Assembly: GCA_963726745.1 (NCBI GenBank)
Contig: CAVSDR010000005.1
Span: 108,056-172,055 of the forward strand
DNA length: 64,000 bases
DNA from: an uncultured Verrucomicrobiae bacterium
GTDB lineage: Bacteria > Verrucomicrobiota > Verrucomicrobiia > Chthoniobacterales > UBA10450
Direction of reading: 5' to 3'
The stretch's first letter is position 1. Each line of letters starts with the position of its first letter. Below, one piece after another: positions 1,666-63,109 of this stretch. The notes beneath the pieces were generated by a model that did not search any database, was not told the DNA's origin, and saw nothing but the letters and a program-made list of their open reading frames with translations. Made by a program: the position numbers and the translations under genes.

Positions 1666-3303
1666 ATGAGATGCTTCCGCGGTGGCGTGGTTCTTGGGCT
1701 GGCCGCCCTGGCCATGCCCTCGCTGGCAGCCGAGGAGCACGCGGGCCACAGCTCGTTAGGCAAAGTAGATTTCCCGGTCAGCTGTTCGCCGGCGGCGCAG
1801 GAGGAGTTCACCCACGCGGTCTCGCTGCTCCATCACATGACCTATCCGCAGGCGCGCGCGGCGTTTCAGCAAGCGATGAAAACCGACCCGTCCTGCGCGT
1901 TGGCGCAATGGGGCTTCGCGATGACGCTCTTCCAGCCGCTTTGGCCCACGCGCCCCAGCCCGGCAGCGCTGCAAGCTGGCTGGGAAGCGGTGCAAAAAGC
2001 ACAGACGCTGGACGCGCCCACGGCCCGCGAGCGCGCCTTCATCGCGGCGGCGGCGGCGTTCTTCGAGGAACCGCAGGCGGACGATTATTGGGCGCGCATC
2101 CGCCGTTGGGAAGCAGCCATGGCGAAGGCCTACGCGGCCTTTCCGGAGGACGATGAAGTGGCTGCCTTTTATGCGCTGGCCCACCTGGCGACGGCGCCGG
2201 CCGACACCATCTCGCGCGAGCATGCCGATCGCGCGGCCGCGATTCTCCTGCGGCTCTACAGGAAGAATCCCGAGCATCCCGGCGCGATGCATTACCTGGT
2301 GCACGCAAACGACGTGCCCGGCCGCGAACGCGAGTCGCTCGAGATCACGCGCCGCTACGAGTCGATCGCGCCCAACAACCCGCACGCGCTCCACATGCCC
2401 ACGCATATCTACACGCGGCTGGGCGATTGGGACGGGGTGGTGCGGGGCAACTTGAAGGCGGCGGAAGCGGCGCTGGCCCACCCGGCGGGCGAGCGCCAGG
2501 AGTATGTCTGGGACGAGTTTGCCCACGCGATCGAATACCTGGTCTACGCCGATCTGCAGAAAGGCGACGATGCCGCCGCGGCCGCGCAATTAAATCGGCT
2601 GCACGGGACGCCGCAACTCGAGCCGAGCTTCAAGACGGCGTTCCATCTCGCCTCGACCCGGACGCGTTATGCGCTGGAGCGCCGGGATTGGGCCGAGGCC
2701 GCAAAGCTGGCCGCGCGTGAGCCCGCCGCGCTGCCGTGGGATCGCTATCCCTGGGCGGAAGCGATCGCGCGTTTCGGGCATGGCCTGGGCGCGGCGCATC
2801 TGGGCGAACTCGACGCGGCCAAGGCCGACATCGCGCGCTTGCGAGCGCTCGAAGAGGTGGCGAAAGCATCCGGCGAGGAACTCTTCCAGCGGCACATTCG
2901 CGTGGCCCGCCTGGAACTGGAAGGCTGGAGCGCGCAGGTCGCCGGCGAAGGCGAGCGCAGCCTCGCGCTCCTCCGGGAAGCCGCCGAGCTGGAAAGCGCC
3001 ACGCCGAAACATCCGGTCACGCCCGGCCCGACGCTCCCGGCACACGAGTTGTTAGGCGACTTGCTCCTGGAACAGGGCGCGCCGGCCGCGGCGGCGGCGG
3101 CTTACCAGCGTTCGCTCGAGCTTTACCCGCGCCGCCTGAACAGCCTCCTCGGGGCCGCACGCGCCTCCGCCGCGGCCGGCGATGGCGCCGCCGCGCGGAA
3201 ATTTTACCAGCAACTTGTGGCCCTCGCCGGCCAGGGCACGCGCCGCGCGCCGCTCGCAGAAGCGGAAAAATTTCTCGCCGCAGGCGAAACCGCGTCTCGT
3301 TAG
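1666..3303 (+). CDS. secreted TPR-like repeat protein, function unknown
   Basis: 545 aa ORF with a signal-like N-terminus (MRCFRGGVVLGLAALAMPSLAAEE). Helical repeat/TPR-like C-terminal half (e.g. AAAAYQRSLELYPRRLNSLLGAARASAAAGDGAAARKFYQQL). Its TAG stop lies inside a CTCGTTAG motif copy. Confidence 0.6.
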   Translation: MRCFRGGVVLGLAALAMPSLAAEEHAGHSSLGKVDFPVSCSPAAQEEFTHAVSLLHHMTYPQARAAFQQAMKTDPSCALAQWGFAMTLFQPLWPTRPSPAALQAGWEAVQKAQTLDAPTARERAFIAAAAAFFEEPQADDYWARIRRWEAAMAKAYAAFPEDDEVAAFYALAHLATAPADTISREHADRAAAILLRLYRKNPEHPGAMHYLVHANDVPGRERESLEITRRYESIAPNNPHALHMPTHIYTRLGDWDGVVRGNLKAAEAALAHPAGERQEYVWDEFAHAIEYLVYADLQKGDDAAAAAQLNRLHGTPQLEPSFKTAFHLASTRTRYALERRDWAEAAKLAAREPAALPWDRYPWAEAIARFGHGLGAAHLGELDAAKADIARLRALEEVAKASGEELFQRHIRVARLELEGWSAQVAGEGERSLALLREAAELESATPKHPVTPGPTLPAHELLGDLLLEQGAPAAAAAAYQRSLELYPRRLNSLLGAARASAAAGDGAAARKFYQQLVALAGQGTRRAPLAEAEKFLAAGETASR

Positions 3304-6300
3304 CCGCGCGTGCGCGCCTTGCGCCAGCGAGCGACCAGAAGCAGCGCCGTGCCCGCGACCGCGAGGGCCGCGGGAGCGGGCTCGGGGACGAGGAGAGTGT
3401 TGGCGGCGGAAGCGTTGAAGCCGAAGGAATCGCCCACCGTGGTCGCGGTCAGCGAAAGCGAAAATTGGAGATCAAGGGTGCCGTTTACGCCGGTCCCGAT
3501 CGCGCCCAGGTCGACGACGGTGCCGTCGAAAAACGAGATCGCGCTGCTGAGCGTGGTGAAGCTTTGGTCGACCACCACAAGGTTCTCGCGCAGGACCTGG
3601 AGCGTGAGCGAATGGAAGCCGCCGCCGGTGAATTGCGGCGCGAAAAATCCGAGCTTGAGCTGGTGCTGCGCCGGAAGCTGCGCGAGGTCGATCGAGAAAG
3701 TGATCTCGCTGGCAAAAGTACGCGGCGCTCCCGAGCCATCGGCGGGATAACCGCCCGCGAGGAATAACTGCGCCAGCGTATCGGCGCCGAAGGGCCCGCC
3801 CGCGGCAGTGGGCAGGCCGGTGGCAAAGGCCGCGGCTTCGAGCTGGTTTGCGAGCATCGGTGAAGGCGCTGGCTGCCCCACGGCGGCGCGCGCTTCGGTT
3901 TCGCTGGTGCTCCCGACCGGCGCGCTCGCCACTGCCTGGATGGTGGTGATGGCGCCGCCGCTCGAACTCGCGCTGGAACTCGAGGTGCCGCTGCTGCCGG
4001 TGGCGCTGGCGTGGGCCAGGGCGCTGCCGCCTAACGAGTCGTTCCGCCCGGCGCCGCCCGTGGCGGTGGCGCTGGCGCTCACCTGTCCCAGGCCGGTGGC
4101 GCTGGCCTTCGCCGTGGCCGTGCCGCCGGCGCCGCTCGTGGTCATGCTCCCGCCGCGCAAGCCCCCGAGCCCGCCGGTGGCGGTGGCCTTCGCGAACACC
4201 GCGCTGGCCTGGCCGCTGGCGATCGCAGTGGAATGGGCGCTGCCGCCGTTCCCGCCGTGGCCGGTGCCATCGGAGATCGAACCGCCCGCGCCGCCTTGTG
4301 CCACATCCTCCGCGCTCGCGCTGCTCGCACCGAGCGCGGTCGCGCTGGAAGTGCTGGTGCCGCTGCCACCCGCGCCGGCCTGGCTGTTGCTCGCACCGGA
4401 GACCATTCCGCCGGCGCCGCCCAGACCCATGCCAAAGGCCTGGACCGCCTGCCCGTCGCCGGACGTCTGCGCGGTTGCGCTGGCCTCCCCGTCGCCCCCG
4501 TTTCCGCTATCAGATCCCAGGAAGGCGTTCCCGCCACTCCCGCCGCGCGCATTTGCATCGGCTCGGGCTGCGCCGCCGCTGTTCACGGAACTGGTGGTGG
4601 CAGTGCCGTTGGCTCCGCGACGCGAACTGCCGAGCGCCGCGCTGCGCATTCCGCCCGCGCCGCCAACGGCGAAAGTCTGGAGGTGGAGCAACCCACTGGT
4701 GTTCTTCGACCGGTTTAACGTGCTCTCCGCGGTCCCGCCGAAGCCCGCCGCGCCGGCCAAGGCGGAGCCGCCATTGCCGCCGGCGGCGACCTGGCTCAGG
4801 AGCACCGGGCCGGTGCTGTCGCCATCGAGCGCGTTGTTAATCGAGGCGGCGGCTCCGTGGCCCGCGGAGCCCATGCCGGAGGTGACACTGCCGCCGGTGC
4901 CGCCGGTTTGCGTGCCGCTGAGGTTCAGGGACGCGCCGCCGGTGGAAGTGGCGCTCACATTGCCGAGGACGGCCGTCGCCCCATCTCCCGCGGATGGTCC
5001 GTCGACGGTGTTGCCGCCCGCGCCGCCGGTGGCGGTGACGATGCCGGAGAGGGAAGAAGCGTTGTTGCTGGAAAGGGCGAGCGCCGCGGTTGCGCCCGCG
5101 CCGTGGGAGCCCGCCACATCCTGGCCCTCGCCGCCCGCGCCGCCCAAAGCGCTGACTATTCCGGTGAGCATTCCGCCAGCTGAGTTCGAGGCGGTGAGCG
5201 TGGAACTGGCCGCGCCCGCCTCTCCGGCCACGCTGCCCGCGCCTCGCGCCGCACCGCCGTCTCCGCCGGTTGCACTTTGCGTGAGCTGCAAGGCGCCCGC
5301 AGTCGCGCCGCTGACGGCATTGTGGATCGTGCTGCTGGCGCCGTTGCCGGCGGTGGCGCCAAAGTAGGCCGCGCCGCCCGCGCCGCCGATTTGGTTCGCG
5401 CTCGCGCTGACGTTGCCGCCGCCATTGGAATTTCCGCTCGCGCTCGCGTTCGCGCTGCCGCCCTGCCCGCCAAAGGTGCCGCCCCCGGCCGCCTGGCCGC
5501 CGCGGCCGCCCTCTGCGGTATTCGCGACCGTGACGTTCCCGCTGCCGGCCGTGCTGCCGGTGCCGCCGGCGGTCGCCTGCCCGCCCGCGCCTCCGCTGCC
5601 CTGGCCAGTGTCGACTGCGGCTACGCCGCCGCCGGTGCCGCCGGTGGCCGTGGTGGAAAGGGAGGCGAGGTTGCCGTCGGCCGTGACGGTGCCGGTGACG
5701 ACGGCCTCGCCGCCGCTGCCGCCATGAGTGGTCGTCGCGCCGGTCGCGATCGCGCCGCCCAAGCCGCCGGTCGCGAGACCGATGGCGGCAGCGGGATTGC
5801 TCGCGCCACTGGCCGTGGCCATCGCGCTGCTGCTGGCCTTCCCGCCGGCGCCGCCATGGCTGCCGCCAAATCCTTGGCCGCCCATGCCGCCGTATGCCTC
5901 CGCATTGGCGCGGGCCAGGCCGGCGTCGTTGGTCGAGTTGGCGATTGCGGTCGCCTGGCCGGCGGCGCTTGCGGTGCCGGTGCCGGAATGGAGTGCGCCG
6001 CCGTTACCGGAAGTGGCGGCGGTGTTAATCGTGAGCCCGGCAAAGCCGCTCAAGCCCGTTTGGCTGCGCGTGAGCGAGCTAAACGCGTCGCCGGCAGCGC
6101 CCGCGGCGGAATACCCCGCGCCGCCGGAACCGCCGCCGACGGTTTGGTTGAGCGTGACGCTTCCGCCACTGGCCGCGTGGCCATCGATGGCGTCGACTAA
6201 ATGGACCGACGCGCCCTTGCCGCCCACGCCGCCGGGCGAGATCGCGTGGCCGCCGTTGCCGCCCTGGGCGGAGAGAATCACCAGGGCCTGACCTTCGGCC

Positions 6301-6980
6301 GCGCTGGAAGTGGCGGCGATCTCGCCAAGCGTAATGCCTGCGCCATCGCCGCCGATGCCGCCGGGCGAATTGAGATCGCCCAGGACAGAGCCCCCGTTGC
6401 CTCCGGCGAGGGTGACATTCACGAGCGCGTGGCCCGCGCTGTTCAACGCCGTCGCGCTGGCGGTAGCCGCGCCGCCGTGACCGCCGTTGCCGTTGGTCCC
6501 GGCGAGACCGGGCGATGATGCGCCGGCGCCCCCGCCGCCGCCATGGCCGCCAGCGCCGCCCACGGACTGAACGGTCGCCTGGGCGCCGCCAGCAAATGCT
6601 CCGCTGGTGCTGGCCGTGCCCGAGGCGGTTCCGCCATTGGCGCCATTTCCGCCCATGCCGCCCCCGCCGCTCGGCGGAATGCCGCTGCCGCCATTTCCTC
6701 CGTTCCCGCCTTTGCCGCCGAAGGCGGTCGCGGAATTGCTCGAGTCGGCGGGATTATTTGCGGTCGCGTTTGCGTCTCCGCCCGGGGTGCCCGGGCCGCC
6801 GGCCATGCCGGTGCCGGGTCCGCCCGCCGTTCCATCCATGCCCGGCGGGCCGGTATCCACTACATCCGCGGCTCGGGCCGGGAGCAAAAAAAAGGCGCTG
6901 GCGAGAACCAGCGCAAAGGCTTGAACCGGACGCAGCGACGAACCGCGCCGGGGGGAACCGACAAGCTTCCGTGACAGCAT
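3300..6980 (-). CDS. giant Gly/Ala/Ser/Thr-rich repeat protein with PEP-CTERM sorting signal
   Basis: 1226 aa with an N-terminal signal-like segment (..AFALVLASAFFLLPARAADV). About 1000 aa of low-complexity repeats with recurring (A/T/Q)GGxGG units, then a ~190 aa non-repetitive C-terminal domain. It ends VPEPAPAALAVAGTALLLVARWRKARTRG (PEP motif + TM helix + basic tail). Confidence 0.75.
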   Translation of the reverse strand: MLSRKLVGSPRRGSSLRPVQAFALVLASAFFLLPARAADVVDTGPPGMDGTAGGPGTGMAGGPGTPGGDANATANNPADSSNSATAFGGKGGNGGNGGSGIPPSGGGGMGGNGANGGTASGTASTSGAFAGGAQATVQSVGGAGGHGGGGGAGASSPGLAGTNGNGGHGGAATASATALNSAGHALVNVTLAGGNGGSVLGDLNSPGGIGGDGAGITLGEIAATSSAAEGQALVILSAQGGNGGHAISPGGVGGKGASVHLVDAIDGHAASGGSVTLNQTVGGGSGGAGYSAAGAAGDAFSSLTRSQTGLSGFAGLTINTAATSGNGGALHSGTGTASAAGQATAIANSTNDAGLARANAEAYGGMGGQGFGGSHGGAGGKASSSAMATASGASNPAAAIGLATGGLGGAIATGATTTHGGSGGEAVVTGTVTADGNLASLSTTATGGTGGGVAAVDTGQGSGGAGGQATAGGTGSTAGSGNVTVANTAEGGRGGQAAGGGTFGGQGGSANASASGNSNGGGNVSASANQIGGAGGAAYFGATAGNGASSTIHNAVSGATAGALQLTQSATGGDGGAARGAGSVAGEAGAASSTLTASNSAGGMLTGIVSALGGAGGEGQDVAGSHGAGATAALALSSNNASSLSGIVTATGGAGGNTVDGPSAGDGATAVLGNVSATSTGGASLNLSGTQTGGTGGSVTSGMGSAGHGAAASINNALDGDSTGPVLLSQVAAGGNGGSALAGAAGFGGTAESTLNRSKNTSGLLHLQTFAVGGAGGMRSAALGSSRRGANGTATTSSVNSGGAARADANARGGSGGNAFLGSDSGNGGDGEASATAQTSGDGQAVQAFGMGLGGAGGMVSGASNSQAGAGGSGTSTSSATALGASSASAEDVAQGGAGGSISDGTGHGGNGGSAHSTAIASGQASAVFAKATATGGLGGLRGGSMTTSGAGGTATAKASATGLGQVSASATATGGAGRNDSLGGSALAHASATGSSGTSSSSASSSGGAITTIQAVASAPVGSTSETEARAAVGQPAPSPMLANQLEAAAFATGLPTAAGGPFGADTLAQLFLAGGYPADGSGAPRTFASEITFSIDLAQLPAQHQLKLGFFAPQFTGGGFHSLTLQVLRENLVVVDQSFTTLSSAISFFDGTVVDLGAIGTGVNGTLDLQFSLSLTATTVGDSFGFNASAANTLLVPEPAPAALAVAGTALLLVARWRKARTRG

Positions 6981-8437: not shown

Positions 8438-9250
8438 ATGAGCAATCCAAACAAAGCCCTCTGGGAGAAAGGCGACTTCACCCGCATCGCGGCGACCATG
8501 CGCGAGAGCGGGGCGGAATTGGTCCGGCGGATCGGGATCGGGAAAGGGGACAAAGTCCTCGAGCTCGGCTGCGGCGATGGCACCACCGCGATTCCCGCGG
8601 CGCAGCTCGGCGCGGAAGTTCTCGGCGTGGATATAGCCAGCAACCTGGTCGCCGCGGGCCACGCGCGCGCCGCCAAGCTGGGACTGGCAAATTGCCGCTT
8701 CCAGGAAGGCGATGCCTCGAAGCTCGACGGCCTGCCGGATGACACCTTCGATTACGTCGTCAGCATCTTCGGCGCGATGTTCGCCCCGCGTCCGTTCGAT
8801 GTCGCCAAGGAGATGGTCCGCGTAACCCGGCCCGGCGGGAAGATCGTCATGGGCAACTGGATTCCCGGCGACCCGACGTTGGTCGCGCAGATCCTTCGGA
8901 TCAGCTCCGCCTACACCGCACCGCCGCCGGAAGGATTCGTTAGTCCGATGACCTGGGGCCTCGAGGAGCACGTGCGCGAGCGCTTTGCCGCGGCCGGCAT
9001 CGCCCCGGAAAACATCTCCTTCATTCGCGAGTCGTTCACCTTCCGCTTCGACGGCCCGCCGGCCGGCTTGGTCGACGCCTTCAAGACCTACTACGGCCCA
9101 ACGATGAACGCCTTCGAAGCCGCGGAAAAGAACGGCCGCGCCGCCGAGTTGCAGCGCGAGCTGGAGGAACTCTTCGTTAGCCAGAACCAGGCTAAGAATA
9201 ATGCCACCGAAATCGCCGCCACTTTTCTACGAGTGACGGTGCAACGGTAA
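8438..9250 (+). CDS. class I SAM-dependent methyltransferase
   Basis: ATG at 8438 inside ORF 8231..9250. Motif I is VLELGCGDGTTAIPAAQLGAEVLGVDIA, followed by FDYVVSIFGAMF. Confidence 0.8.
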   Translation: MSNPNKALWEKGDFTRIAATMRESGAELVRRIGIGKGDKVLELGCGDGTTAIPAAQLGAEVLGVDIASNLVAAGHARAAKLGLANCRFQEGDASKLDGLPDDTFDYVVSIFGAMFAPRPFDVAKEMVRVTRPGGKIVMGNWIPGDPTLVAQILRISSAYTAPPPEGFVSPMTWGLEEHVRERFAAAGIAPENISFIRESFTFRFDGPPAGLVDAFKTYYGPTMNAFEAAEKNGRAAELQRELEELFVSQNQAKNNATEIAATFLRVTVQR

Positions 9251-9261: not shown

Positions 9262-10972
9262 CTACATCCGCTCCGGGACTTCGATGCCTAACAAGTCGAG
9301 ACCGCGCTGGAGAATGCGGGCGGTGAGGTGGCAGAGGGCGAGGCGGGTGCTGCGGGCGGGCTCGTCGGCCTTGAGGACCGGGCAGGCTTCGTAGAAGCCG
9401 TGGAAGTGGTTGGCTAATTCGAAAAGGTAATTAGCCAGCACATTGGGGCGGAAGTCGTTCAGGACCGTAGGGACGATCTCGGCGAATTGGCAGAGCTTCT
9501 TCGCGAGGACGATCTCCGCGGGCTCGGCTAACGAGAGGTTGTCGGCTATTTTTTCCGCGGCGCCGGCTTTGCGGAAGATCGACTGGATGCGGACGTAGGC
9601 GTTTTGCAGGTAGGGCGCGGTGTTCCCCTGGAAGGAGAGCATCCGGTCCCACGAGAAAACATAGTCGGTCATCCGATACTGCGAGAGGTCGGCATACTTG
9701 ACCGCGCCCAGGCCGATGATGCGCGCCACCGCCTCGCGCTCCGCCGCGGGCAGCTCGGGATTTTTCTCGTCGACGATTTTTTGCGCGCGCGCCATCGCCT
9801 CGTCGAGCACGTCCTGCAGGGCGACGTTTTCGCCACTGCGGGTCTTCATCAATTTGCGGTCGTCGCCGAGGATGCTGCCGTGGGTGATGTGGCGGAAATC
9901 GGCGGTGAAACCTTCGCGCCGGGCGATCTCGAAGATCTGCCGGAAGTGCAACTGCTGGGGCGCGCCGGTCACGATCCAGATGGTGTCGCGCGCGAGATCG
10001 TGAATGCGGTAGTCGACCGTGGCGATGTCGGTGGTGGCGTAGTTATAGCCGCCGTCGCGCTTCTGGATGATCGCCGGTTTGTCGGCGAGTTCCGGGATGT
10101 CGCGGAAGAAAACGCAGGTGGCGCCTTCGCTTTCCTCGGCCAGGCCAGCAGCCTTCAAACGCGCAACCACCCCGGCGAGGCGGTCGTTAAAGAAACTCTC
10201 GCCGCGCTGCATGTCGTAGCGGATCCCGAGGAGGCGATAAGCGCGGGCAAATTCGCCTAACGAGAGGTTCACGCACTCCTGCCAGATGGCAAAATTTTCC
10301 GGGTCGCCAGCCTGCAGCTTGACCAGCTCCGCCTTGCAGGCTTCGCGCACTGCGGGGTCGGCCGTGCCGCGTTCGTTCGTCTCCTTGTAGATGCGGACGA
10401 GCTCGGCAATCGGAGCACGGGCGAGCGCCTCGCGATCCAACAAGTTCTTCCAGCCCCAGACGACCATGCCGAACTGCGTGCCCCAGTCGCCGATGTGGTT
10501 GTCGCGGATGACGTCGTGCCCGAGGAACTCGGCGATGCGCGCAAGCGTGTCGCCCAGGACGATCGAGCGGATATGGCCGATGTGCATCGGCTTGGCCACG
10601 TTGGGCGAGCCGAAGTCGATCACGATCTTTTTCGGATGACTCGTTAGGGCAACGCCCAGGCGGTCGTCGCGGAGGAGGGCGCTGGCTTTCGCGGCCACGG
10701 CTTCGGGTTGGAGGGTAAAGTTAACGAAGCCGGCACCGGCGATGGTGGGCGGGCCGCAAAGGTCGGTCGACGGCCAGGCATCGACGATCTGCTGGGCGAG
10801 GGCGCGGGGGTTTTGCCCCAGCTTCTTCGCGAGCACGAGGGCGACGTTGCTCTGGTAATCGCCGAAGCGCGGATCAGTCGCCGAGCGCGACCTCGGCGGC
10901 GTCGGTGGGAAGCCCAGCGGCGGTGAGGGTGCCGGCTAATTTTTGCGCGAGCTGCGCCTGAAAAGTTTCCAC
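9262..10972 (-). pseudogene. argS: arginine--tRNA ligase, apparent 1-nt frameshift after codon ~30 (probably a sequence error)
   Basis: The body (ORF 9262..10836 and upstream in the same frame to 10935) reads ..ATDPRFGDYQSNVALVLAKKLG.. plus the HIGH-type motif (PNVAKPMHIGHIRS). A 32-codon N-terminus (GTG 10972: VETFQAQLAQKLAGTLTAAGLPTDAAEVALGD*) is in another frame and stops at 10874-10876. Confidence 0.85.
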
Positions 10973-10975: not shown

Positions 10976-11440
10976 CTACTTCTGTGGGCGGTCGCGGAAG
11001 ATCGCGAGGATTTCTTCGGACGACTTCGCCTGCGCGAGGCTCTCGCGGGTGGCGCGGTCGTTCAGGAACTTGGCGATCGAGGCGAGCGTGCGCAGGTGCG
11101 TCTGGAATTGATTCTTCGGGACGACGAAGAGGACGACAAATTTAACCGGCGCATTGTCGAGCGCGTCGAACTCAATTCCGCGGGTGGAGCGGCCGAAGGA
11201 GGCGACGACCTGGTCGATCCGGTCGGACGAGGCGTGGGGAATGGCGATGCCGAAGCCGATCCCGGTGCTCATGGTTTCCTCGCGTTGCTTGAGCGAGGCG
11301 AGGATGCTCTCGCGGTCGTCGCCCTTGATTTTGTCGAGGCTAACGAGCAGATCGATCAGTTCGACGATGGCGGGCCAGCGTTCGGTGGCCTGCATCTCCG
11401 GAATGATCTGCTCGGCAGATAGTAGGCTCGCCAAAGACAT
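10976..11440 (-). CDS. ptsN: PTS IIA-type (EIIA-Ntr / PtsN-like) regulatory protein
   Basis: 154 aa. IIPEMQATERWPAIVELI...TGIGFGIAIPHASS (active-site His context) ...KFVVLFVVP. Typical PtsN-like architecture. Confidence 0.75.
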   Translation of the reverse strand: MSLASLLSAEQIIPEMQATERWPAIVELIDLLVSLDKIKGDDRESILASLKQREETMSTGIGFGIAIPHASSDRIDQVVASFGRSTRGIEFDALDNAPVKFVVLFVVPKNQFQTHLRTLASIAKFLNDRATRESLAQAKSSEEILAIFRDRPQK

Positions 11441-16942: not shown

Positions 16943-16967
16943 CGAGCGGAGCAACGAGCGATCTTGC

Positions 16968-34094: not shown

Positions 34095-34099
34095 CCACC

Positions 34100-50720: not shown

Positions 50721-52791
50721 ATGGAAGCCACTCTTAGCTGGAAAACTCTCCCTGCGCCCGAGTCTCTCCCGGACACGCGCGGCGCCCTTCTGCGTCATCC
50801 TTGTTTCCACGCCTTCCTTCTCTTGGTGGTCGGCTTTCTGGTTCGTCTGCCCGCGCTCCAGGGGACGCCACTCTGGGACGATGATTACCTTGTCGCGGAG
50901 AATCCTTTCATCCGCAGCCCGCTGCTTATTCCGGAAGCTTTCCGGCATTACCTTTTCCCGGATGGCTTCGGCTCGCATTACCGTCCGGTGCAAAACGTTT
51001 CCTTTGCGCTCGACTATTGGTTCTGGAACACCGACGCCTACGGCTTTCACCTGACCAATGTCCTGCTGCACCTAACGAGTGCAGTCTTTCTCTACCTGCT
51101 CCTGCGGCGTTTGCTTCCGGGCTTGGTCGGCCGCACTCACGGCGCCATGGTGGCTTTTGCGGTCGCGTTCCTTTGGGTGCTGCATCCGGTGCATAGCGCA
51201 GCGATCGATTACATCTCCGGGCGGGCGGATAGCCTGGCCTTTGCCTTCGCCAGCGGCGGCTGGCTGCTTTTCTTGCGGGCCGAGCAGGGCGCGGGGAGGC
51301 GCAAGGTTGCCGGCTATCTAGGCGCGGCCCTCTGCGGTTTGCTGGCGCTGGCCTCGCGCGAGAGCGCGCTCGTCTGGCTGGGAATTTTCCTCCTGCACAC
51401 CTTCGCTTTTCGCGCCGGTCTTTCCTGGAAATGGAAAGCCACCTGCCTCGCCGCCTGCCTCGCGCTCGTGGCCGGTTACGCCGGCTTGCGCAGCCTCCCA
51501 CAACGCCAGTCCGGCCCGCCCAAGTCCGAGCCCACGAGCGCGCCCGTGCGCGCCGTGCTTATGCTCCGCGCGCTGGGCGATTACGGGCGGCTGATGCTTT
51601 GCCCGACCACGCTCTACATGGAGCGGAGCGTGCTCGACCCGGAGAATTACCTCAACACCCCGAGCTGGAGGAAGTCGGTCAAGACGGAATACCTCTCGTT
51701 AAGCGGAGCGCTCCTCCTGGCGGCTTTCGCGTTCGGTTGTGCCCGTCGCGGCGCCGGGCGCCAGCTGCGGGTCTTCGGCAGCGCCTGGTTTTTTGCCGGC
51801 TACCTGCCGGTTTCCAATTTGCTCGACTTGAACGCCAACGTCGCCGAGCACTGGCTTTACCTCCCGAGCGTCGGCTTTCTCCTCGTCCTCGCCGGCTGGG
51901 TTCTGGAGTTCTCTCCGCGTGGTCAGCGGGTCGCGGTCGTGGTTGCCTTGCTCGCCGCTGGCGGGTTGGGCGGGCGCGCCTATGTCCGCAGCACCGATTG
52001 GGTCAGCCCAAAGATATTCTACCAGCGCACCATGACTGCCGGCGGCTCCAGCACTCGCGTGGCCGCGAACCTCGGCCTGATCTACCTGAATGAGGGCGAG
52101 TACGTAAAAGCCGAATCCATCTTTCGCCGCATCCTTCAGCTCACGCCGGATTACCCAACCGCGCGAAACAATCTTGCCGAGGCGCTCTATCGCCAGGGGA
52201 AGCATGCGGAAGGCGAGGCGATGTTCACCAACTCCAAGGTCGCCGCGCAGGAGACGCGGAAGGAATATCCACGCACCTGGGTGGCTGCGCTCAACCTGGC
52301 GCACATCCGGCATAATGCGCACGACGACGCCGCCGCGATCGTGCTCCTGGAGCAGGCGCGGAAGGATTACCCGAACGTCTGGCAGATCATTCGCTTCGAA
52401 TCAGAAGTCCTCCGCCAAACCGAGGGACCGGCTGCGGCCGCGGAGTTGGTCTCTGCGTTTGCGGTCGGAACATTGGTGGCACTACGGCGCCACGATCGCG
52501 CTCGGGCAATTGCTCGCGGAAAAAGGCGACGCCGAGGCTGCGGTCGCGCAATTGCGTTTTGCCAGCTGGCTCGATGTGCATGACGCCGAGGCCCTGCGCC
52601 TGATCGCGGGCGTGCGCCAGCGGCAGGGCCTGCTCGAGGAGGCGCGAATCGCGCAGGCGCGCGCTATTCGGCGTCAGCCCGATCAGCCAACGCTTTACCG
52701 CTCGTTAGCCGACATTCTCACGCTGCTGGGCCGGCGCGAGGAGGCGCGGGCGCGCGCTCGCGCAAATGTCCGCGCTCGAAGCGTTGGCTAA
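50721..52791 (+). pseudogene. TMTC-like membrane protein (GT-C/DUF1736-like N-terminal domain + C-terminal TPR repeats) with 1-nt frameshift
   Basis: The N-terminal domain reads ..LWDDDYLVAENPF..HYRPVQNVSFALDYWFWNTDAYGFHLTNVLLH.. The TPRs are RVAANLGLIYLNEGEYVKAESIFRRILQLTPDYPTARNNLAEALY... ORF 50721..52583 becomes nonsense after ..ELVSAFAV. ORF 52174..52791 continues EHWWHYGATIALGQLLAEKGDAEAAVAQLRFASWLD... Confidence 0.7.
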
Positions 52792-52856
52792 GACCAGCAT
52801 CGCCGCGAATTGATCCGCGTTTCTGCGCGCGGCCGCTCGTGCTAGCGTCCGCCGGC

Positions 52857-53783
52857 ATGCAAATCATCGTCCTGGGCGCCGGCGCCATCGGCAGTCTCCT
52901 TGGCGCCAAGCTCGCGGAGGCCAACGAGGTCACGCTCATTGGCCGCCCTGAGCACGTGCGCGCGATTCAGGCCGAAGGCCTGCGCGTGACGGGCCGCGAG
53001 GAACGCGTGGTGCGGGTGCGCGCCGCGACCGCGGTCGAGCGGGTGGAGCCCGACACCTGCATCCTCCTGACCACCAAAGTGCCGGCTAATCGCGCGGTGC
53101 TTGCGCCGCTGGCGCCGTTACTGCGCGCGGATACCACCGTCATCGCGCTGCAAAATGGACTCGCGAGCGAAGAGGAAGCGCGCGCGGTTCTGCCGGCGGA
53201 GGTCGTTGTTTTACGCGGGCTCACGCAACTCGGCGCGATCTTCGAGGCGCCCGGCAGCGTGCGTTACATGGTCGCCGGCGAGACTCTCCTGCAGGCTCAT
53301 CCGCGCAGCGAAAGCGTGGCCGTGCTTTTCCGCGCCGCCGGCCTGCCCTGCCGCACCGTGCCCGACATTCGCCGCGACGTCTGGCGCAAGCTCATCTTCA
53401 ACTGCGTGGTCAATCCCATCACCGCCCTGCTCGGCGCGGAGGTGGGGACGATCGCCGATGAAGGCCTCGACCCACTCAAGCGCCTCGTGCTCGCGGAATG
53501 CCTCGCGGTGGCCGCGGCCGAGGGCGTGCACTTCGAGGAGGATTTCCTCGGCGAACTCAACGCCCTCTACGCGCCCTCGCGCAACGTCGTCTCGATGCTG
53601 CAGGATCTCCGGCGCGGACGCTCGACGGAAATCGAGCACCTCAACGGCGCCGTGGTTTCGTTAGGCAAAAAACACCGCCTCGCCTGCCCGGTGAACACCG
53701 CGCTCGCGGCGATCGTCCGCGAGCTCGAGCGCGCGGCCGCGCCTACTCTTCCCAGAGAAAGTGCTCCAGCCGCAGACGACTGA
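52857..53783 (+). CDS. panE: 2-dehydropantoate 2-reductase (ketopantoate reductase)
   Basis: ATG 52857: MQIIVLGAGAIGSLLGAKLA (Rossmann GxGxxG) ... NPITALLGAEVG...SMLQDLRRGRSTEIEHLNG (ApbA_C). Confidence 0.8.
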   Translation: MQIIVLGAGAIGSLLGAKLAEANEVTLIGRPEHVRAIQAEGLRVTGREERVVRVRAATAVERVEPDTCILLTTKVPANRAVLAPLAPLLRADTTVIALQNGLASEEEARAVLPAEVVVLRGLTQLGAIFEAPGSVRYMVAGETLLQAHPRSESVAVLFRAAGLPCRTVPDIRRDVWRKLIFNCVVNPITALLGAEVGTIADEGLDPLKRLVLAECLAVAAAEGVHFEEDFLGELNALYAPSRNVVSMLQDLRRGRSTEIEHLNGAVVSLGKKHRLACPVNTALAAIVRELERAAAPTLPRESAPAADD

Positions 53784-56149
53784 GGCGTCCTTTCGCTTCC
53801 TCGCTCCGGGCGCCGCCGGCAAAGGCAAGCTTTTCGTAGATCGCGGCCGCGGGTTGCCACTGGTTTTGCTCCTCGAGCAGACGCGCCGCATTGAATCCGG
53901 CCTTGTAGAACCAGAAGAACTCCCGCCGCCGATCAGGCCGGCCGCCGTCGTCGAGCACTTCGTAGAACGCCGCCAGCGCTTCCTCCGGTTTTTCGAGCCG
54001 CTCAAGGCACATTCCTTTCTTGAAAAGCGCCTGGTTTTTCCAATGCGCGGGGACGCCAGATTCGTTTGCCAGCTGATTGTAGGCCTCGATCGCGCGCGTG
54101 TAATTCTCCGGCGCATTCGCGCCCAAATCGTAGAGCACATCACCCTGGCCGCAGCGCGCTTCGCGCTTCTCCGGCGCAGCCGCGTCGCCCTTCAAGACTT
54201 CCTCATAAAGCGTGAGCGCGTCCTGCGGTTTGCCCAGTTTCCGCTCGATCACCGCCTGCTCGTTGCGCGCGGCCCATTTCCATTCGCCGCCCGCTTTCAC
54301 CACTTCGTCGAAGAGCTCGAGGGCCCGCTCGAGTGCGCCGGGATTCATGCTTTGCATGGCCGCTTCCGCGGCGAAAAAGAGCGCTTTCCGCGCGAGCGGC
54401 GCGGCGGGGTCGATCTGGGCGAGGATCTCGAATTGCGTCTGCGCGTTCGCGAAATCCTGCCGGCGATAATGCAGCTCTGCCAGCTTTAGCCGCACCTCCG
54501 GGAGGAGCGCGCTCTGGGGATATTTGGCAACAAATTCATTCGCCCGCGCGATCGCCTTGGTTTCGTTAGGCGCGGCCTCGTCCAGCCAGATGCGCAAGTA
54601 GTCAGCGCGCTCGCTCGCGGCCGGGTCGGCCGGCGCCTCCGCGGCGCGGGCGAGGAATTGGCCAGCCTCTTCCAGCCGTGGCGGCGCGGCGTGGAACGCC
54701 ATTTCCGCGAGCGCCACGAAAGCCTCGGCGGCGCGCGGATGTTTCGGGGAGGTGCGGGTGAACTGAACCAGCGCCTCGGGCTCGCCGCGCCGGGCCTTGA
54801 GCAACGCATCCTCCAGCGCGAGATCCGTGGCCGCGCCGCGGTCGGCCAGCGCCTGGGCCGCAGTCGCCGCTTCCGGCGCTTTCTCCGCTTCCATCCAGGC
54901 GAGCGAAGCGTTAAAGCGCGCGGCCGGCTGCTCCACGCGCAGGAAAGTTTCCGCCGCGTGCACGTAGTTTCCCCCTGCGAATTCCGCGCGCGCGATCGCA
55001 AAGTCGACCCGTTCCCGCGCTGCTCCGCTCACCGGCAACGCGCGCGCCTTTTCCAGGATGGCGCGCGCTTCTTCCGTCTGTCCGTCCTGCAATTTCAGCT
55101 GTGCAAATTCGATGAAAGCGTCGGCTAAATCCGGCAGCGGCGGATGCTCCGCGCGCAGTTGCGCGAAGGCGGCGAGCGCGGCCTCGCGATGGCCCAGGCG
55201 AAGTTCGGCGCGCGCGAGATACCATTGCGCGAGCGCGCGGCGCGGCTGCGCTGGCTCGCGGCTCCAGCGCCCGAGATCGTGGCGCGCCTGCCGCCGCTCC
55301 GCCGCGTAGAGTTGGTCGAGCTTCGCGAAGAGCGCGGGCAGGGCTTCGTCGCCCGGATAATGCTCGATGTAATTCTCCAGGAAATCATCGCCGTTCTCCG
55401 GCGTGCCCAGGCGGAGGTGCGCATCCGCGAGCGCAAAAAGCGTGGCCTGCAGGACGGCGTGACGGGCCCCGCGCGGGCGCCGCAAAATCGAGGCATACAT
55501 GTTGAGCGCGCGCTGCGGGCGATTCGTCGCCCAGGCGATGCGGCCGCCGAGGAGACGGCGCTCGCGACGCTCGCTGTCGCTCTTCGCATTCACGGAATCG
55601 AGCAGGCGTTGCGCGGCGCCGACTTCGTTTTTGCGCGAGCAAAATTTCCGTGGCCGCGAAGCGCGCGCGCACGCTCCAACGCGGTTCGCGGGCGAGGCGG
55701 GTGAGCAACTCGAGCGCTTCATCCGAGCGGCCGAGCGCGCGCAACGCTTCCGCCTGGCCCATGAGCGCATCGCTTCGCCAAGGGAGGATCACTTCGGTGG
55801 CGCTGGTGGCGAAAAGCGGGAGCGCCTCGGCCCAGCGCCCGAGCGCGGCGAAAGCCTGCGCGCGATGGAAATTTTGCCTCGGCAGAAGCCTGCACCAAAG
55901 GGTCGGCTAAAACTTCCAGCGCGGCTTGCGGTTCCCCCGCGGCCACGAGGGCTTCGCCCAATTTCACGGTCGCGGCGCGGCGCTCGTCCTCGGGCAATTT
56001 CCCCGCCGCGAGGAGCGCGCGCAGACGCACGACCGCAACCTGCGGCACGCCTTCCTGCAGCGGCTGAACCGCGCGCGCGAGTTCTCCGGGCAAGGCTTGC
56101 GCCCCGGCGGTGAGCACGAGTGCGAGCGCGAGGAAAACAGCCAGCACTT

Positions 56150-56153: not shown

Positions 56154-59035
<2,882 letters not shown>

Positions 59036-59380: not shown

Positions 59381-60920
59381 TCACTTGTGCCGCTGCAGGA
59401 AGCGGTGCACGTCCTCGGCCAGTTTCGGGCCGATTCCCTCGGTCTGCGCGATCTGCTCGACGCTCGCTTTGCGCAGGCGATTGACCGAGCCAAACGCGCG
59501 CAGGAGGAGATTCTTGCGGTTCTGGCTCACGCCCGGGCAATCATCCAGCAAGCTCTCGCCGATCCGCTTCTTCATCAGCAATTGGTGGTAGCCGTTGGCG
59601 AACCGATGCGCCTCGTCGCGGATGCGCTGGAGCAACCGGAGCGCGCCCGAATCGGCCGGTAATTGCAACGGCAGCGCGCGGCCCGGCCGATAAATTTCCT
59701 CAAACTCCTTTGCCAGGCCGATGATCGGCAGCTCGTGCAGCCCGAGCCGCTGGAGCTCCTTGCAGGCGGAGGAGAGCTGGCCTTTGCCGCCATCGACGAT
59801 GATGAGATCGGGCAGCCGCACGCTGGTGAATTTCGCACGCTCGAGCGCTTCCGCCGGATTCTCCTGCGAGAACTCCGCGGTCTCCGGATCGACCGCGCGC
59901 GCCTGCAGGAGCACGCGCGAATACCGCCGCCTAACGACCTCGGCCATGCTCGCGAAATCGTCCTGGCCGGCAACCGTGCGGATGCGGTAGCGGCGGTAGT
60001 TGTTCTTGTCCGGGACGCCGTCGCGGAAGCAAACCATCGAGGCAACGACGTGCGTGGTGGAAATATTCGAGATGTCGAAGCACTCCATGACCGCGGGCGC
60101 GCGCTCGAGCTGGAGCGCGTCGCGCAACGCCTCCACATCTTTCGCCGGATTGATCGTGCTCGGGAGGCTGTGGCGGGTGAAGCGCCGCATTGGCTTGGTC
60201 GTGCGCTTCAAGTCCTCGAGCATGTTTCGCAATTCGGCGGCCTTCTCGAAATCGAGCTTCTCGGCCGCTTTCTTCATCTCCTCTTCGACCGCGCCGATCA
60301 TTTCCCGCGAGTGTCCCTCGAGGAAATCGCAGGCCTGGGCCACGCGCTCGCGGTATTGCTCCGCGGTCGTATCGCTCAAGCGCACCGGCACCTGATAGGT
60401 CGAGGACTTCAGCTCGCGCGCTGTCGGCGAGCCGCGGCCAAAGGTGAGCACGCCGAATTTCTTGCGCATGAAGTTCAACGTCTGCCGCAGCGCGCCGGCG
60501 TGCGCATACGGCCCGAAATAGCGCGCATTATCGTCCTTCTTGAAACGCGCCAAACGGAAGCGCGGCCATTCCTCGCGTCGGGTCGACTTTGACCACGAGG
60601 AAGCGTTTGTCGTCGCGGAAGGAAACGTTGTAACGCGGGCGGAATTCCTTGATCAGCTTCCCTTCGAGCAGAAGCGATTCGGGCTCGCTCGCGACCGTAT
60701 GGAATTCAAAATCCCAGACCGCCTCGAGCAGCGCGCGCGTCTTCAAGTCCGCCTGCGCCATGCGCGACGGGAGAAAGTAGGAGCCGACCCGCTTCCGGAG
60801 ATCGCGCGCCTTGCCCACGTAGATCACGCGATTGAAACGATCGCGCATCAAGTAGACGCCGGGCTTGTGCGGCACCTCGTGCATCCGCTTCGCCAGGTCG
60901 GGCTTTTCCTTGGTCGCCAT
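59381..60920 (-). pseudogene. uvrC: excinuclease ABC subunit C with 1-nt frameshift after the GIY-YIG domain
   Basis: ORF 60528..60920 is the GIY-YIG domain (GVYLMRDRFNRVIYVGKARDLRKRV..) and ends ..KVDPTRGMAALPF..*. ORF 59381..60553 continues ..ARFKKDDNARYFGPYAHAGALRQTL.. through the C-terminal HhH (..QIAQTEGIGPKLAEDV). Confidence 0.9.
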
Positions 60921-60923
60921 TCG

Positions 60924-62018
60924 TTAGGCCACGGCGGCGCGCGCCCGTCGTTTTGGCATCGCGCTGTGCACCATCATCAGCTCGGTCACGTTCTCCGGCG
61001 TGAGCAACCCGACCAGCCGCTGCATCTGGTCGAGCACCGGGACAGCCGGGCAATTCGATTCCTGCATGATCCGAAAGGCCTCTTCGAACGGCATCCCGCT
61101 CGAGACCGTCGGCACGCCGCGGCGCATCACGTCGGCTACCCGCAGGGCGGGATCGTCCTTCTTGAGCGCGGCGAACAAATCCTTGCGTAAAAGCACGCCG
61201 CTGACCGTCCCGTTCCCGTCGAGCACCGGGAAGTCGTGTTGCGACGTCGCCAGGAGCGCGTCGACCGCGGCGCTCAGCGGCGCGTCCGCCGGGAGCGTGC
61301 GGAATTCCCGCACCATCGCGCTCGAGACCGGCATCCCGCGCGAGACATCCCGCATTTGCGCGACCGCCGCTTCCTGCGAAGCGCCGATATAAATGAACAG
61401 CGCGATGAACAGGAGCATCGGGTTCCCGAACAAGCCGGCGAAGCCGAAGAGGAAGGCGCACGCCTGGCCGACCGTGGCCGCGATCTGGGTGGCGCGGGCG
61501 TAGTTCAACCGCGTCGCCAGGAGCGCGCGCAGGACGCGGCCGCCATCCATCGGGAAAGCAGGCAGCAAATTGAAAAGCACCAGGACGATGTTGATCGTGA
61601 GCAATTGCCGGAGCAGATCGGGCGCTTCGACCACGTTGCCGCCCACTTCGCCGCGGAAACCGGTGACCAGGAAAAGGCCGAGCGCGATCGCGACATTCAC
61701 CGCGGGTCCGGCGAGCGCGACCACCAGTTCCTGGCTCGGCTTGTCCGGCATCCGCTCCATCCGCGCGACCCCGCCGATCGGCAGGAGGGTGATATCCGGC
61801 GTCTTGATTCCGTAGGCCCGCCCGGCGATCACGTGCCCGAATTCATGCAGGAGCACGCAGAGAAAAAGCAGCAGGATGAAAAAGACGCGCGCCGCTGCCG
61901 CCGCGGTCCCGCCTTGCGAATAATAACTGAAAGCCAGCCACGCCAGCAGCAGCAGGAACGTAACGTGAATGCGCACGACGGTGCCGCCGGCGCGAAATAT
62001 GGGAATCGACCAACTCAT
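60924..62018 (-). CDS. site-2 protease family (M50) zinc metalloprotease with tandem CBS domains
   Basis: HEFGHVIAGRAYG (HExxH) in a TM helix and NLLPAFPMDGGRVL. The C-terminal CBS pair is ..REFRTLPADAPLSAAVDALLATSQHDFPVLD.. ATG 62018 (the ORF track GTG at 62051 is an alternative). Confidence 0.8.
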   Translation of the reverse strand: MSWSIPIFRAGGTVVRIHVTFLLLLAWLAFSYYSQGGTAAAAARVFFILLLFLCVLLHEFGHVIAGRAYGIKTPDITLLPIGGVARMERMPDKPSQELVVALAGPAVNVAIALGLFLVTGFRGEVGGNVVEAPDLLRQLLTINIVLVLFNLLPAFPMDGGRVLRALLATRLNYARATQIAATVGQACAFLFGFAGLFGNPMLLFIALFIYIGASQEAAVAQMRDVSRGMPVSSAMVREFRTLPADAPLSAAVDALLATSQHDFPVLDGNGTVSGVLLRKDLFAALKKDDPALRVADVMRRGVPTVSSGMPFEEAFRIMQESNCPAVPVLDQMQRLVGLLTPENVTELMMVHSAMPKRRARAAVA

Positions 62019-62086
62019 GGATTTGCTCTCGCGGGGGAAACGTATCCCCACTTCCCCGGCCGTGCATGTGCGCCGACGCTCTCCGC

Positions 62087-63109
62087 ATGTTTGACGTCGC
62101 GATCATCGGCAGCGGCCCGGCCGGCGCGACCTGCGCGCTCCTCTGCGCGCGCGCCGGTCTGCGCACGCTCCTGCTCGAGCGGGAGAAATTTCCGCGCGAG
62201 AAAGTCTGCGGCGATTGCCTGAACCCGGCCTGCCTGCCGGTGCTGGAACGTCTTGGCCTAACGAGTGCACTGGAGAGCCTGCCGCACGCGCGCCTGCGCC
62301 GGGTGGAGTTCATCGCCATCGGCGGGAAGCAGGTCGCGATCGACTTCGAGGGACGCAGCGAGATCGCGGTCAAGCGGAGCCATCTCGACCGGATGCTGAT
62401 GGAGGCGGCGCGGGCCGCGGGGGCGGAAGTGCGCGAAGGTTTCACCCTCCAGCGCGTGACTTCCGCGGGGGATGGCTGGGAATTAAACAGCGAGATCGCG
62501 GCGCGCTCGCTGGTCGCGGCGGACGGGCGGAACTCGACCGTGGCGCGCTTGCTCGGCTTGCTCCCGCGGATCGAGCGCGAGCGCGTGGCCCTGCAGACGC
62601 ACCTGAAGTTGCCGCCTGATTTTGGCGAGCGCGTGGTCCTGCATTTTTTGCCCGAAGGCTACGCCGGTTACGCGCCCGTGGGCGAAGGGCAGCTCAATCT
62701 TTGCCTCGTGAGCCGGCCGGCGGGCATGGCCGCGTTGCGCCGGTGGGCGGAGGAGCGCTTCGGCCTCACCGCGGAGCATCCCTGGCGGACGATCACGCCG
62801 TTGCGGCGCGCGCCGATCGCGCCGGGAGGTCGCCGGCTCTTTTTCGCGGGCGACGCCGCGCGCGTGGTCGAGCCGTTCACTGGCGAGGGAATTTTCTACG
62901 CGCTGCGCACCGGGGAGCTGGCCGCGATGTGCCTCGTCGATGGACGCGACTACGCCGCGGCGCACGCCGAGCTCTATCGTGGACGGCTTTGGATTAATCG
63001 TCTCGCCCGGGCTGCGGTGCTCTCGCCGCGCGCGACTTCGTTGCTCCTGCGCGCCGGCCTGGCGCACCCGAAATTACTCGGTGCGCTCACGACCAAGGTC
63101 GTCGGCTAA
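62087..63109 (+). CDS. FAD-dependent oxidoreductase, geranylgeranyl reductase family
   Basis: MFDVAIIGSGPAGATCALLCARAGLRTLLLEREKFPREKVCGDCLNP (GxGxxG + CGD) and GDAARVVEPFTGEGI. ATG 62066 is an alternative start. Confidence 0.8.
   Translation: MFDVAIIGSGPAGATCALLCARAGLRTLLLEREKFPREKVCGDCLNPACLPVLERLGLTSALESLPHARLRRVEFIAIGGKQVAIDFEGRSEIAVKRSHLDRMLMEAARAAGAEVREGFTLQRVTSAGDGWELNSEIAARSLVAADGRNSTVARLLGLLPRIERERVALQTHLKLPPDFGERVVLHFLPEGYAGYAPVGEGQLNLCLVSRPAGMAALRRWAEERFGLTAEHPWRTITPLRRAPIAPGGRRLFFAGDAARVVEPFTGEGIFYALRTGELAAMCLVDGRDYAAAHAELYRGRLWINRLARAAVLSPRATSLLLRAGLAHPKLLGALTTKVVG

Follow-up and report, generated by a model that had tools for sequence, protein, structure and literature searches.

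The DNA uptake sequence (DUS) of the Neisseriaceae is a 12-mer, AT-GCCGTCTGAA, that exists with its dialects and has the minor pilin ComP as its receptor; the uptake signal sequence (USS) of the Pasteurellaceae exists as AAGTGCGGT and ACAAGCGGT types, has ComN as its predicted receptor and is evenly spaced according to the older literature. Uptake sequences are known in these two families, where they are 9–10 nt long, number hundreds to thousands of copies, make up as much as ~2% of the chromosome and are depleted in regions under diversification (bioRxiv 10.1101/2025.10.24.684340); about half of DUS and USS lie in predicted terminators. The octamer GCGATCGC of cyanobacteria, highly iterated palindrome 1 (HIP1), is enriched 15- to 300-fold and is conserved beyond coding needs inside open reading frames (ORFs) and between them, and Xu et al. 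argued from the conservation of sites between genomes that HIP1 is under selection (PMC5861425); recent preprints tie HIP1 to transformation and horizontal transfer. Here we describe a hyper-abundant asymmetric word, CTCGTTAG/CTAACGAG, in a 64-kb stretch of DNA from an uncultured Chthoniobacterales bacterium (contig CAVSDR010000005.1, positions 108,056 to 172,055; hereafter the window, numbered from its first letter), and we tentatively propose that it serves as an uptake-sequence-like tag of self DNA.

The octamer occurs 23 times in the window, 7 times on the + strand and 16 times on the − strand, and is its most over-represented 8-mer: 100 dinucleotide-preserving shuffles gave an expectation of 0.73 copies (standard deviation 0.81, maximum 3), and an order-3 Markov model gave 1.1. 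The enrichment withstands codon-aware null models as well, as 19 genic octamers stand against 0.57 expected from a synonymous-codon shuffle that keeps the protein and 0.66 expected from a codon-order shuffle (maximum 4 in 500 shuffles); it amounts to ~30-fold over the dinucleotide and codon-aware nulls. The heptamer TCGTTAG is present 34 times, TCGTTAGG 22 times and TCGTTAGGC 16 times, giving 0.36 octamers and 0.53 TCGTTAG per kb. Specificity is very sharp over seven positions: TCGTTAG is invariant, position 8 is relaxed to G (16 copies) or C (8 copies), and C follows; beyond ~3 nt on each side (outside about −3 to +11) the flanks show no conservation, and the element is therefore a word rather than a repeat element. 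Its core is TCGTTAGG(C), and pooling the copies yields the extended consensus A-Y-TCGTTAGGC-R-A-A, with a weaker A-rich flank, R-A-A-A, past the core. The octamer CTCGTTAG of the window is thus a lineage “dialect” of a wider, non-palindromic 9-mer core, TCGTTAGGC.

The same word is found in related bacteria. Our sample consisted of the window, 31 ArgRS-centred loci and 80 GlnE-centred soil-metagenome loci (111 related loci, each ≤21 kb), which together are the basis of all statistics given here; expected counts in the related loci are order-3 Markov estimates, and their genes were called, approximately, by a codon-usage caller trained on the Pfam-confirmed genes of the window. The window comes from the chromosome of a member of the Chthoniobacterales (Verrucomicrobiota) and has an ordinary gene content: it carries argS, typA/bipA, yebC, a rho-like gene, glnE, uvrA, uvrC, folD and genes for TPR proteins, membrane glycosyltransferases, PEP-CTERM proteins and dockerin-domain subtilases. 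Its ArgRS relatives, from species-representative genomes, are Chthoniobacterales or “Verrucomicrobiae” metagenome-assembled genomes with 70–81% protein identity, and the BipA homologues are labelled Chthoniobacterales by their sources, one entry being 100% identical. The word is the top 8-mer in 19 of the 111 related loci; TCGTTAGG or overlapping words are among the top few over-represented 8-mers in 13 of the 31 ArgRS-centred loci (rank 1 in 11), and the GlnE-centred scan, at an independent locus, again returned TCGTTAGG as the top word in seven lineages. Counts of TCGTTAGG reach 13 in L001 (CAWBSX01), 44 in L010 (DASXEB01) and 37 in L026 (CAWBXU01), in 21.6 kb each, where 0.2–2 are expected; the word makes up 1.8% of the DNA of L010, and the densest loci hold 1.7–2 copies per kb, an enrichment of ~20-fold over the order-3 Markov model.

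The density of TCGTTAG follows clades on the ArgRS tree: 0.5–0.8 per kb in the clade of the window, 1.0–2.1 in the clade of L010, L013, L026 and L015, ~0.5–0.6 in a third clade and 0.1–0.3 elsewhere; the word is not present in the ArgRS-centred locus of Spartobacteria LR76. The base before TCGTTAGGC is mostly C in the clade of the window and T in the densest (L010/L026) clade, so that the spread is family-wide with dialect variants, as for uptake sequences. Sister lineages of ~55% G+C carry a different hyper-abundant word, the 10-mer TGTCGATCTT, whose genic copies number 49 sense and 30 antisense against ~3 and ~3 expected from synonymous shuffles.

The 10-mer TGTCGATCTT was found in loci L018, L054, L056, L057, L059, L063, L065, L068, L074, L081, L086, L087, L097, L098, L101 and L105. 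Its dominant frame is GTC-GAT-CT., that is V-D-L. In contrast to TCGTTAGGC, it favours the + strand, as oriented by glnE, at 2:1 (109:53), including in loci whose genes are mostly on the − strand; the 10-mer might be polar.

Within the window the individual copies, octamers and further copies of the heptamer, are distributed as follows.

1752..1759, + strand: CTCGTTAG (AGCTCGTTAGGCAAA), sense TCG-TTA-GGC in the TPR gene 1666..3303
3296..3303, + strand: CTCGTTAG; TAG stops the + gene 1666..3303, and TAA on the complement stops the − gene 3300..6980
4031..4038, − strand: CTCGTTAG, sense TCG-TTA-GGC in 3300..6980(−)
8937..8943, + strand: TCGTTAG (TTCGTTAGTC), sense frame 1 in the methyltransferase gene 8438..9250
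9174..9180, + strand: TCGTTAG (TTCGTTAGCC), sense frame 1 in 8438..9250
9528..9535, − strand: CTCGTTAG in argS, S-L-A; motif at the same aligned site in L001 and L003
10257..10264, − strand: CTCGTTAG in argS, TCG TTA GGC = S-L-G; motif at this site in 10 taxa, Leu = CTG/CTC in the others
10640..10647, + strand: CTCGTTAG, antisense in argS, CTA-ACG-AGT = L-T-S; shared with L003 only; variable protein segment
11340..11347, − strand: CTCGTTAG, sense CTC-GTT-AGC in the phosphotransferase-system EIIA gene 10976..11440
16939..16946, − strand: CTCGTTAG; the complement gives the TAA stop of the subtilase gene 13802..16942(+)
17345..17351, − strand: TCGTTAG (GTCGTTAGGG), antisense in 17189..17890
25441..25448, − strand: CTCGTTAG, intergenic, downstream of 21312..25421; overlaps the 5' foot of a terminator-like hairpin at 25446-25477, past which is a T-rich tail
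30923..30929, + strand: TCGTTAG (GTCGTTAGCC), sense TCG-TTA-GCC in typA/bipA
31505..31511, + strand: TCGTTAG (TTCGTTAGGCG), intergenic, past typA/bipA
34620..34627, + strand: CTCGTTAG; TAG stops the rho-like gene 32732..34627
35228..35235, − strand: CTCGTTAG, sense TCG-TTA-GGC in glnE
35443..35450, − strand: CTCGTTAG, sense CTC-GTT-AGG in glnE
37061..37067, − strand: TCGTTAG (GTCGTTAGGT), sense in glnE
37159..37166, − strand: CTCGTTAG, sense CTC-GTT-AGG in glnE
41666..41673, + strand: CTCGTTAG (CTCTCGTTAGGCC), intergenic in our gene calls; alternatively, sense in ORF 41202..42005 (uncertain)
41998..42005, + strand: CTCGTTAG, sense TCG-TTA-GGC in 41873..42775; alternatively, TAG stop of ORF 41202..42005 (uncertain)
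44010..44017, − strand: CTCGTTAG, sense TCG-TTA-GGC in the membrane protein gene 42733..45012
45419..45426, − strand: CTCGTTAG, sense TCG-TTA-GCC in the TPR gene 45024..46982
47554..47561, − strand: CTCGTTAG; TAG stops the DUF2079 gene 47554..49479(−)
48663..48670, − strand: CTCGTTAG, sense TCG-TTA-GCT in 47554..49479
49546..49552, − strand: TCGTTAG (TTCGTTAGGCT), intergenic
51072..51079, − strand: CTCGTTAG, antisense CTA-ACG-AGT in the TPR gene 50721..52583
52701..52708, + strand: CTCGTTAG (CTCGTTAGCCGAC), intergenic, upstream of the panE-like gene 52839..53783
53658..53664, + strand: TCGTTAG (TTCGTTAGGCAAA), sense in 52839..53783
54563..54569, + strand: TCGTTAG (TTCGTTAGGCG), antisense in the TPR gene 53743..55770
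58237..58244, − strand: CTCGTTAG, sense TCG-TTA-GGC in uvrA
59931..59937, − strand: TCGTTAG (GTCGTTAGGCG), sense in uvrC
60921..60927, + strand: TCGTTAG (TTCGTTAGGCC), junction of genes 60528..60920 and 60924..62051
62258..62265, − strand: CTCGTTAG, antisense CTA-ACG-AGT in the FAD-oxidoreductase gene 62066..63109

The octamer of the window is found in three frames of the sense strand and also in antisense frames: about 10–12 copies are TCG-TTA-GSC, three are CTC-GTT-AGx and three are CTA-ACG-AGT, while four supply stop codons (3296, for both of two convergent genes, 16939, 34620 and 47554). The original prediction, made from the letters of the window, had named the 23 octamers and 11 further heptamers, and every one is present; its assertion that the word is over-represented is borne out by the shuffles, which also dispose of a mere codon-pair effect. 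It had further held that the word and not a peptide is conserved, which agrees with the several frames, the use of both strands and the substitutions in ArgRS described below, and that the word forces the rare codon TTA, which fits with 26 of the 64 in-frame TTA codons being followed by GGC or GCC and 14 being preceded by TCG. Its reading frames agree with ours, the ORF ends coincide with its four stop-codon copies, the copy at 25441 does lie at a terminator-like hairpin, the unevenness of the distribution that it described is evident in our counts, the half-word TTAG(G/C)C that it saw recurring has a counterpart in an independently enriched TTAGCC, and the likeness that it drew to DNA-uptake sequences fits the comparison made below.

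Codon alignment of ArgRS showed how copies arise. The idea that orthologues keep the word at the DNA level holds here: TCG-TTA-GGC is retained in 10 taxa, and the other taxa with Ser-Leu at this site use CTG or CTC. At a second site four taxa have Leu-Thr-Ser (CTA ACG AGT) where all others have Leu-Ala/Glu-Arg, and at a third a Lys-to-Arg change gives CTC GTT AGG; the motif sites contain no indels in the alignment, and copies therefore arise through substitution. The motif columns fall in intrinsically variable parts of the protein. Among motif-rich taxa, aligned partner sites are bimodal (27% of pairs identical, 7% with 1–2 mismatches and 66% with at least 3), whereas control 7-mers in ArgRS peak at 1–2 mismatches and are identical between genomes in 16–19% of cases; as the comparison covers one gene, 13 motif columns and phylogenetically non-independent pairs, it is indicative of a strong directional force that would work on permissive sites. 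Because the copies occupy several frames, both strands, stop codons and intergenic DNA, and because the substitutions in ArgRS alter residues, the word acts on the DNA level and not via protein or RNA.

The word has no consistent orientation. The octamer is split 16:7 between the strands of the window, which is not significant (exact binomial calculated by hand, two-sided P ~0.09), and the heptamer is split 14:20; with respect to genes, TCGTTAG is sense 22 times, antisense 7 times and intergenic 5 times. When the window was pooled with 19 related loci (363 kb), the 256 copies of TCGTTAGG divided 123:133 between the strands; 98 were sense to genes, 120 were antisense and 38 lay in intergenic DNA. 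Close relatives from the same clade as the window gave a sense-to-antisense ratio of 17:19. Since each locus belongs to one replichore whose direction is unknown, we tested the strand counts for over-dispersion and found none (chi2 10.8, df 20, where df is degrees of freedom); simulated hidden polarities of 60:40, 65:35 and 75:25 were rejected at P = 0.003, 0.0005 and <0.0005, respectively, as was 90:10. Thus, in loci of ≤64 kb, the two orientations are about equal and show no replication polarity, as in uptake sequences. The pooled balance and the lack of hidden polarity argue against Chi, FtsK-orienting polar sequences (KOPS), other polar words and an mRNA-level signal. The orientation skew claimed in the original prediction is therefore not borne out beyond the window: the sense excess is real inside the window and is local to it, but it is absent from the pool, and the Chi-like, architectural and transcription-coupled roles lose their main argument with it.

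The distribution along the DNA is uneven on a large scale and regular on a small one. TCGTTAG is sparse at 11.5–29.5 kb of the window (3 copies, vs. 31 in the remaining 46 kb), a region that encodes subtilases and PEP-CTERM proteins; L003 and L027 (CAVULI010000003.1) have a homologous cluster that also carries almost no copies, so that density is ~6-fold lower across three species in this cluster, the single region of this sort examined. Proteins of the cluster are 40–65% identical between species, vs. 75–95% for the adjoining genes. Gaps between copies in two dense loci are more even than random (coefficient of variation 0.73 and 0.62 vs. 0.96; P = 0.023 and 0.002).

Taken together, these properties resemble those of uptake sequences, and it is this shared set with DUS and USS that leads us to favour, tentatively, an uptake-like mechanism. 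Like DUS, the word is asymmetric, ~9–12 nt long, present at ~0.4–2 copies per kb and up to ~2% of the DNA; it occurs in both orientations, in several reading frames and between genes; its dialects, spread over a family, differ at few positions; and it is enriched in conserved and depleted in diversifying DNA (the latter seen in one cluster, in three species). Its copy density (23 octamers and 34 heptamers per 64 kb) and its enrichment of ~20- to 30-fold are of the uptake-sequence type, and it is imposed on the DNA level, with altered peptides in permissive protein regions. Like USS, it has a 9-nt core with a weaker A-rich flank, its copies are mostly intragenic, it changes encoded peptides and sits in poorly conserved protein segments, and it is evenly spaced where dense. 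Unlike both, it has an unrelated sequence and belongs to a different phylum, the Verrucomicrobiota, in uncultured soil lineages; unlike DUS, it shows no excess at terminators or in inverted pairs, and unlike USS, it has no visible excess of one-mismatch variants in the window.

In the proposed mechanism, double-stranded DNA bearing the word would be bound at the cell surface by a DNA receptor that belongs to a type IV pilus or competence machine; motif-bearing “self” DNA would be preferentially taken up and then recombined; and biased uptake with homologous recombination, a molecular drive possibly aided by selection, would write the word into permissive positions of the core chromosome. We infer recognition at uptake, natural competence of these bacteria and the receptor itself from the likeness to DUS and USS. 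The literature searched offers no explanation for the word, and we rate it as a candidate hyper-abundant uptake-type word in a new phylum, pending functional proof.

Several points weigh against this interpretation. The sample is of limited scope, being confined to the window and short loci. We applied a crude search for signatures to ~1.4 Mb of loci, which is a very small share of each genome; it detected no comEC, comEA, dprA or secretin, and no PilB/T, RecA or ComF signatures. In the literature searched, natural transformation is not reported for Chthoniobacterales, and searches that did not cover all journals returned nothing relevant on the motif, on uptake sequences of Verrucomicrobia or on competence of Chthoniobacterales or Udaeobacter. 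Intergenic copies (38 of 256, 15%) are not in excess over the ~19% of DNA that is non-coding; close pairs are inverted in 3 of 16 cases, one of which, at 20798 of L027, forms a perfect hairpin; and the location in terminators and inverted pairs that is a trait of DUS and USS is lacking, one window copy lying at a terminator. Single-mismatch neighbours of the word are near background in the window, not clearly elevated, and the sense excess in the window is unpredicted by the uptake model.

Among the other genes of the window are three paralogues that resemble type IV pilin genes (47089-47487, 49667-50062 and 50224-50628), of a kind common in this superphylum. They look like major pilins and show only that such filaments exist here; being silent on specificity, they carry little weight. 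The first two lie in a direct duplication of ~490 bp (47069-47557 and 49647-50136; 100% and 97% identical), the stretch noted for the third being 50207-50481, and a 1-nt indel shifts the frame of the second copy past residue 84, making that copy either a pseudogene or an assembly error. All three stand amid membrane glycosyltransferases of the PMT/YfhO/DUF2079 type and TPR proteins, which may constitute a pilin-glycosylation neighbourhood.

If the word is indeed an uptake tag, TCGTTAGGC and the sister-group word TGTCGATCTT would be the first DNA uptake or self-recognition sequences outside the Proteobacteria, the Chthoniobacterales, which rank with the most abundant uncultured bacteria of soil, would be naturally transformable and species-selective in their DNA uptake, and the receptor would be unrelated to ComP and ComN, a reading in which we place slightly less than even confidence. 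Nowhere is the recognition of “self” DNA by bacteria prior to recombination clearer than in sequence-selective uptake; a further independent case, the third and in a different phylum, would indicate that the strategy evolves repeatedly, would help to trace gene flow and delimit species in a soil lineage that is dominant but uncultured, would make the word a marker of core vs. foreign DNA and a signal for binning and taxonomy in metagenomes, and would open a practical route to genetic tools through addition of the word to transforming DNA. Even without a role in uptake, an asymmetric 9-mer takes up as much as ~1.8% of the DNA and, across a bacterial order, alters both codons and the residues they encode. 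Alternatively, the word could have a genome-wide role for which no asymmetric word has yet been described, for example as a self-marker for a defence or repair system or as a site for a chromosome-organising protein.

The main rival explanation, which we consider unlikely, is that the word is a selected nucleoid or chromosome-structure word that binds an abundant sequence-specific protein, in the manner of HIP1 and with no role in uptake. Like HIP1, it is a hyper-abundant word of octamer scale outside the Proteobacteria, and HIP1 itself proves that strongly enriched octamers exist beyond the two uptake-sequence families. Conservation of sites above the control expectation, observed in ArgRS only, is a property of HIP-type words, and together with the even spacing in dense loci it fits a structural role equally well; the within-locus orientation balance is, if anything, above chance. 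However, we know no candidate binding protein; HIP1 is a palindrome linked to orphan methyltransferases, whereas our word is asymmetric and has no known link to a methyltransferase; and a structural role alone predicts neither depletion in fast-diverging genes nor unrelated words in sister lineages. As HIP1 has itself been linked to transformation in the preprints, the uptake interpretation and this rival may not be wholly separate explanations.

A second rival, which we judge very unlikely, is that the word is a functionless by-product of sequence-specific repair or biased gene conversion, for example by a Vsr-type endonuclease acting with a methyltransferase. Such a process could produce copies in both orientations and all contexts with sharp specificity at seven positions, and in motif-rich genomes few aligned sites are near-matches with 1–2 mismatches, as if such sites were quickly converted. 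However, motif-poor relatives differ at 3–5 of the 7 positions, and most copies therefore needed several substitutions rather than one corrected mismatch; an asymmetric 9–12-bp site is unlike typical methyltransferase or Vsr targets; the window genes include no DNA methyltransferase or Vsr-like gene; and the subtilase cluster would not be exempt from a repair bias. In E. coli, the effect of very short patch repair on word frequencies is no more than a fewfold, compared with 20- to 40-fold here.

We give even less credence to a Chi-like RecBCD/AddAB hotspot or a KOPS-type, FtsK-orienting architecture word. Chi and KOPS, like our word, are short, lineage-specific and over-represented in core chromosomal DNA, the density of Chi in E. 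coli is near the window's 1 per 2.8 kb, and the 8-mer length, the enrichment in conserved genes and the 16:7 split of the window point in the same direction; but Chi and KOPS are co-oriented with replication, whereas the pooled word has no polarity, and 1.7–2 copies per kb of the 9-mer are far above Chi or KOPS densities. Most improbable of all is a sense-strand signal at the RNA level or coupled to transcription, such as an mRNA pause, processing or binding site, which the 22 sense copies among 29 genic TCGTTAG of the window would suit, but which is contradicted by the balanced pool, by copies that occupy three frames, lie between genes or span convergent stop codons, and by the lack of any Rfam match in the window. 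A scan of the window for tRNAs was likewise empty.

Simpler origins of the word were considered and rejected. A codon-pair or peptide effect is ruled out by the codon-aware shuffles, the use of both strands and the several frames; a transposon footprint or miniature inverted-repeat transposable element (MITE) is ruled out by the lack of indels at motif sites and by the unconserved flanks, and a dispersed repeat of the MITE or repetitive extragenic palindrome (REP) type by the same two features and by ~85% of copies being genic. An assembly or basecalling artefact is unlikely, as the word-bearing loci span many independent assemblies, the mix of assemblers and platforms being deduced from record names alone (k127/k141, NODE and “contig_”).

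Other abundant words in the related loci proved not to be equivalents. TCGTCATT of L016 is an intergenic tandem heptamer, (TCGTCAT)n, arranged in inverted blocks at 11581-11700 and 15381-15472; GCTGTTCG of L002 and GGTGGTGG of L020 and L029 are single-frame peptide or codon effects; and TTGGACGT of L034 and L039, of which 13 of 14 copies lie between genes, is part of a longer intergenic repeat whose flanks are conserved, probably a REP/MITE-like element in these lineages. In loci L060-L106, many of them glnE-centred and of ~55% G+C, most motif-poor lineages keep a single TCGTTAGG on the glnE strand; a 14-mer, GATTCGTTAGGCGC, which occurs 23 times over all fetched loci, may mark one conserved orthologous site. 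A scan of viral contigs for two close copies of the core was uninformative: it gave 34 matches, all of them unrelated, the majority in low-GC viruses or in tandem repeats, and none with enrichment of the scattered kind.

The window genome has a second enriched word, TTAGCC, which shares the half-site TTAGSC with the main word. Forty copies are present in the window (e.g. at 7441, 10934, 21062, 47885, 52705, 53084, 55123, 55905 and 63104), 32 of them without a TCG prefix, and 31 are genic where codon-aware shuffles predict 13.2 ± 3.4; by the same shuffles AATTAGCC has 8 genic copies vs. 0.4 expected. TTAGCC is used in both orientations (sense TTA-GCC = L-A; antisense GCT-AA. = A-N/K) and has a degenerate extension, RAWTTAGCC-G-R-C-NNN-TTC, in which the second TT lies about one helical turn past the first. 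Its enrichment is specific to the window genome, the relatives being without it save for a mild excess in L001 and L027.

Three genes of the window deserve comment on their own account. The argS ORF (9262-10935, − strand) encodes 524 aa from its first start codon, where relatives have ~570–580 aa, and covers only the C-terminal half of the Arg_tRNA_synt_N domain; its true start may be non-canonical, or there may be an error at the 5' end. The uvrC gene (− strand) is divided into two overlapping ORFs (59381-60553 and 60528-60920), one holding the GIY-YIG domain and the other the UVR, RNase H-like and HhH domains, which suggests a frameshift, either genuine or due to sequencing error. The Rho-like protein (32732-34627, + strand), whose gene has the lowest codon-usage score per residue among the called genes of the window, has an unusual architecture in which Rho RNA-binding and ATPase domains are followed by a C-terminal, membrane-associated DUF4112 domain.

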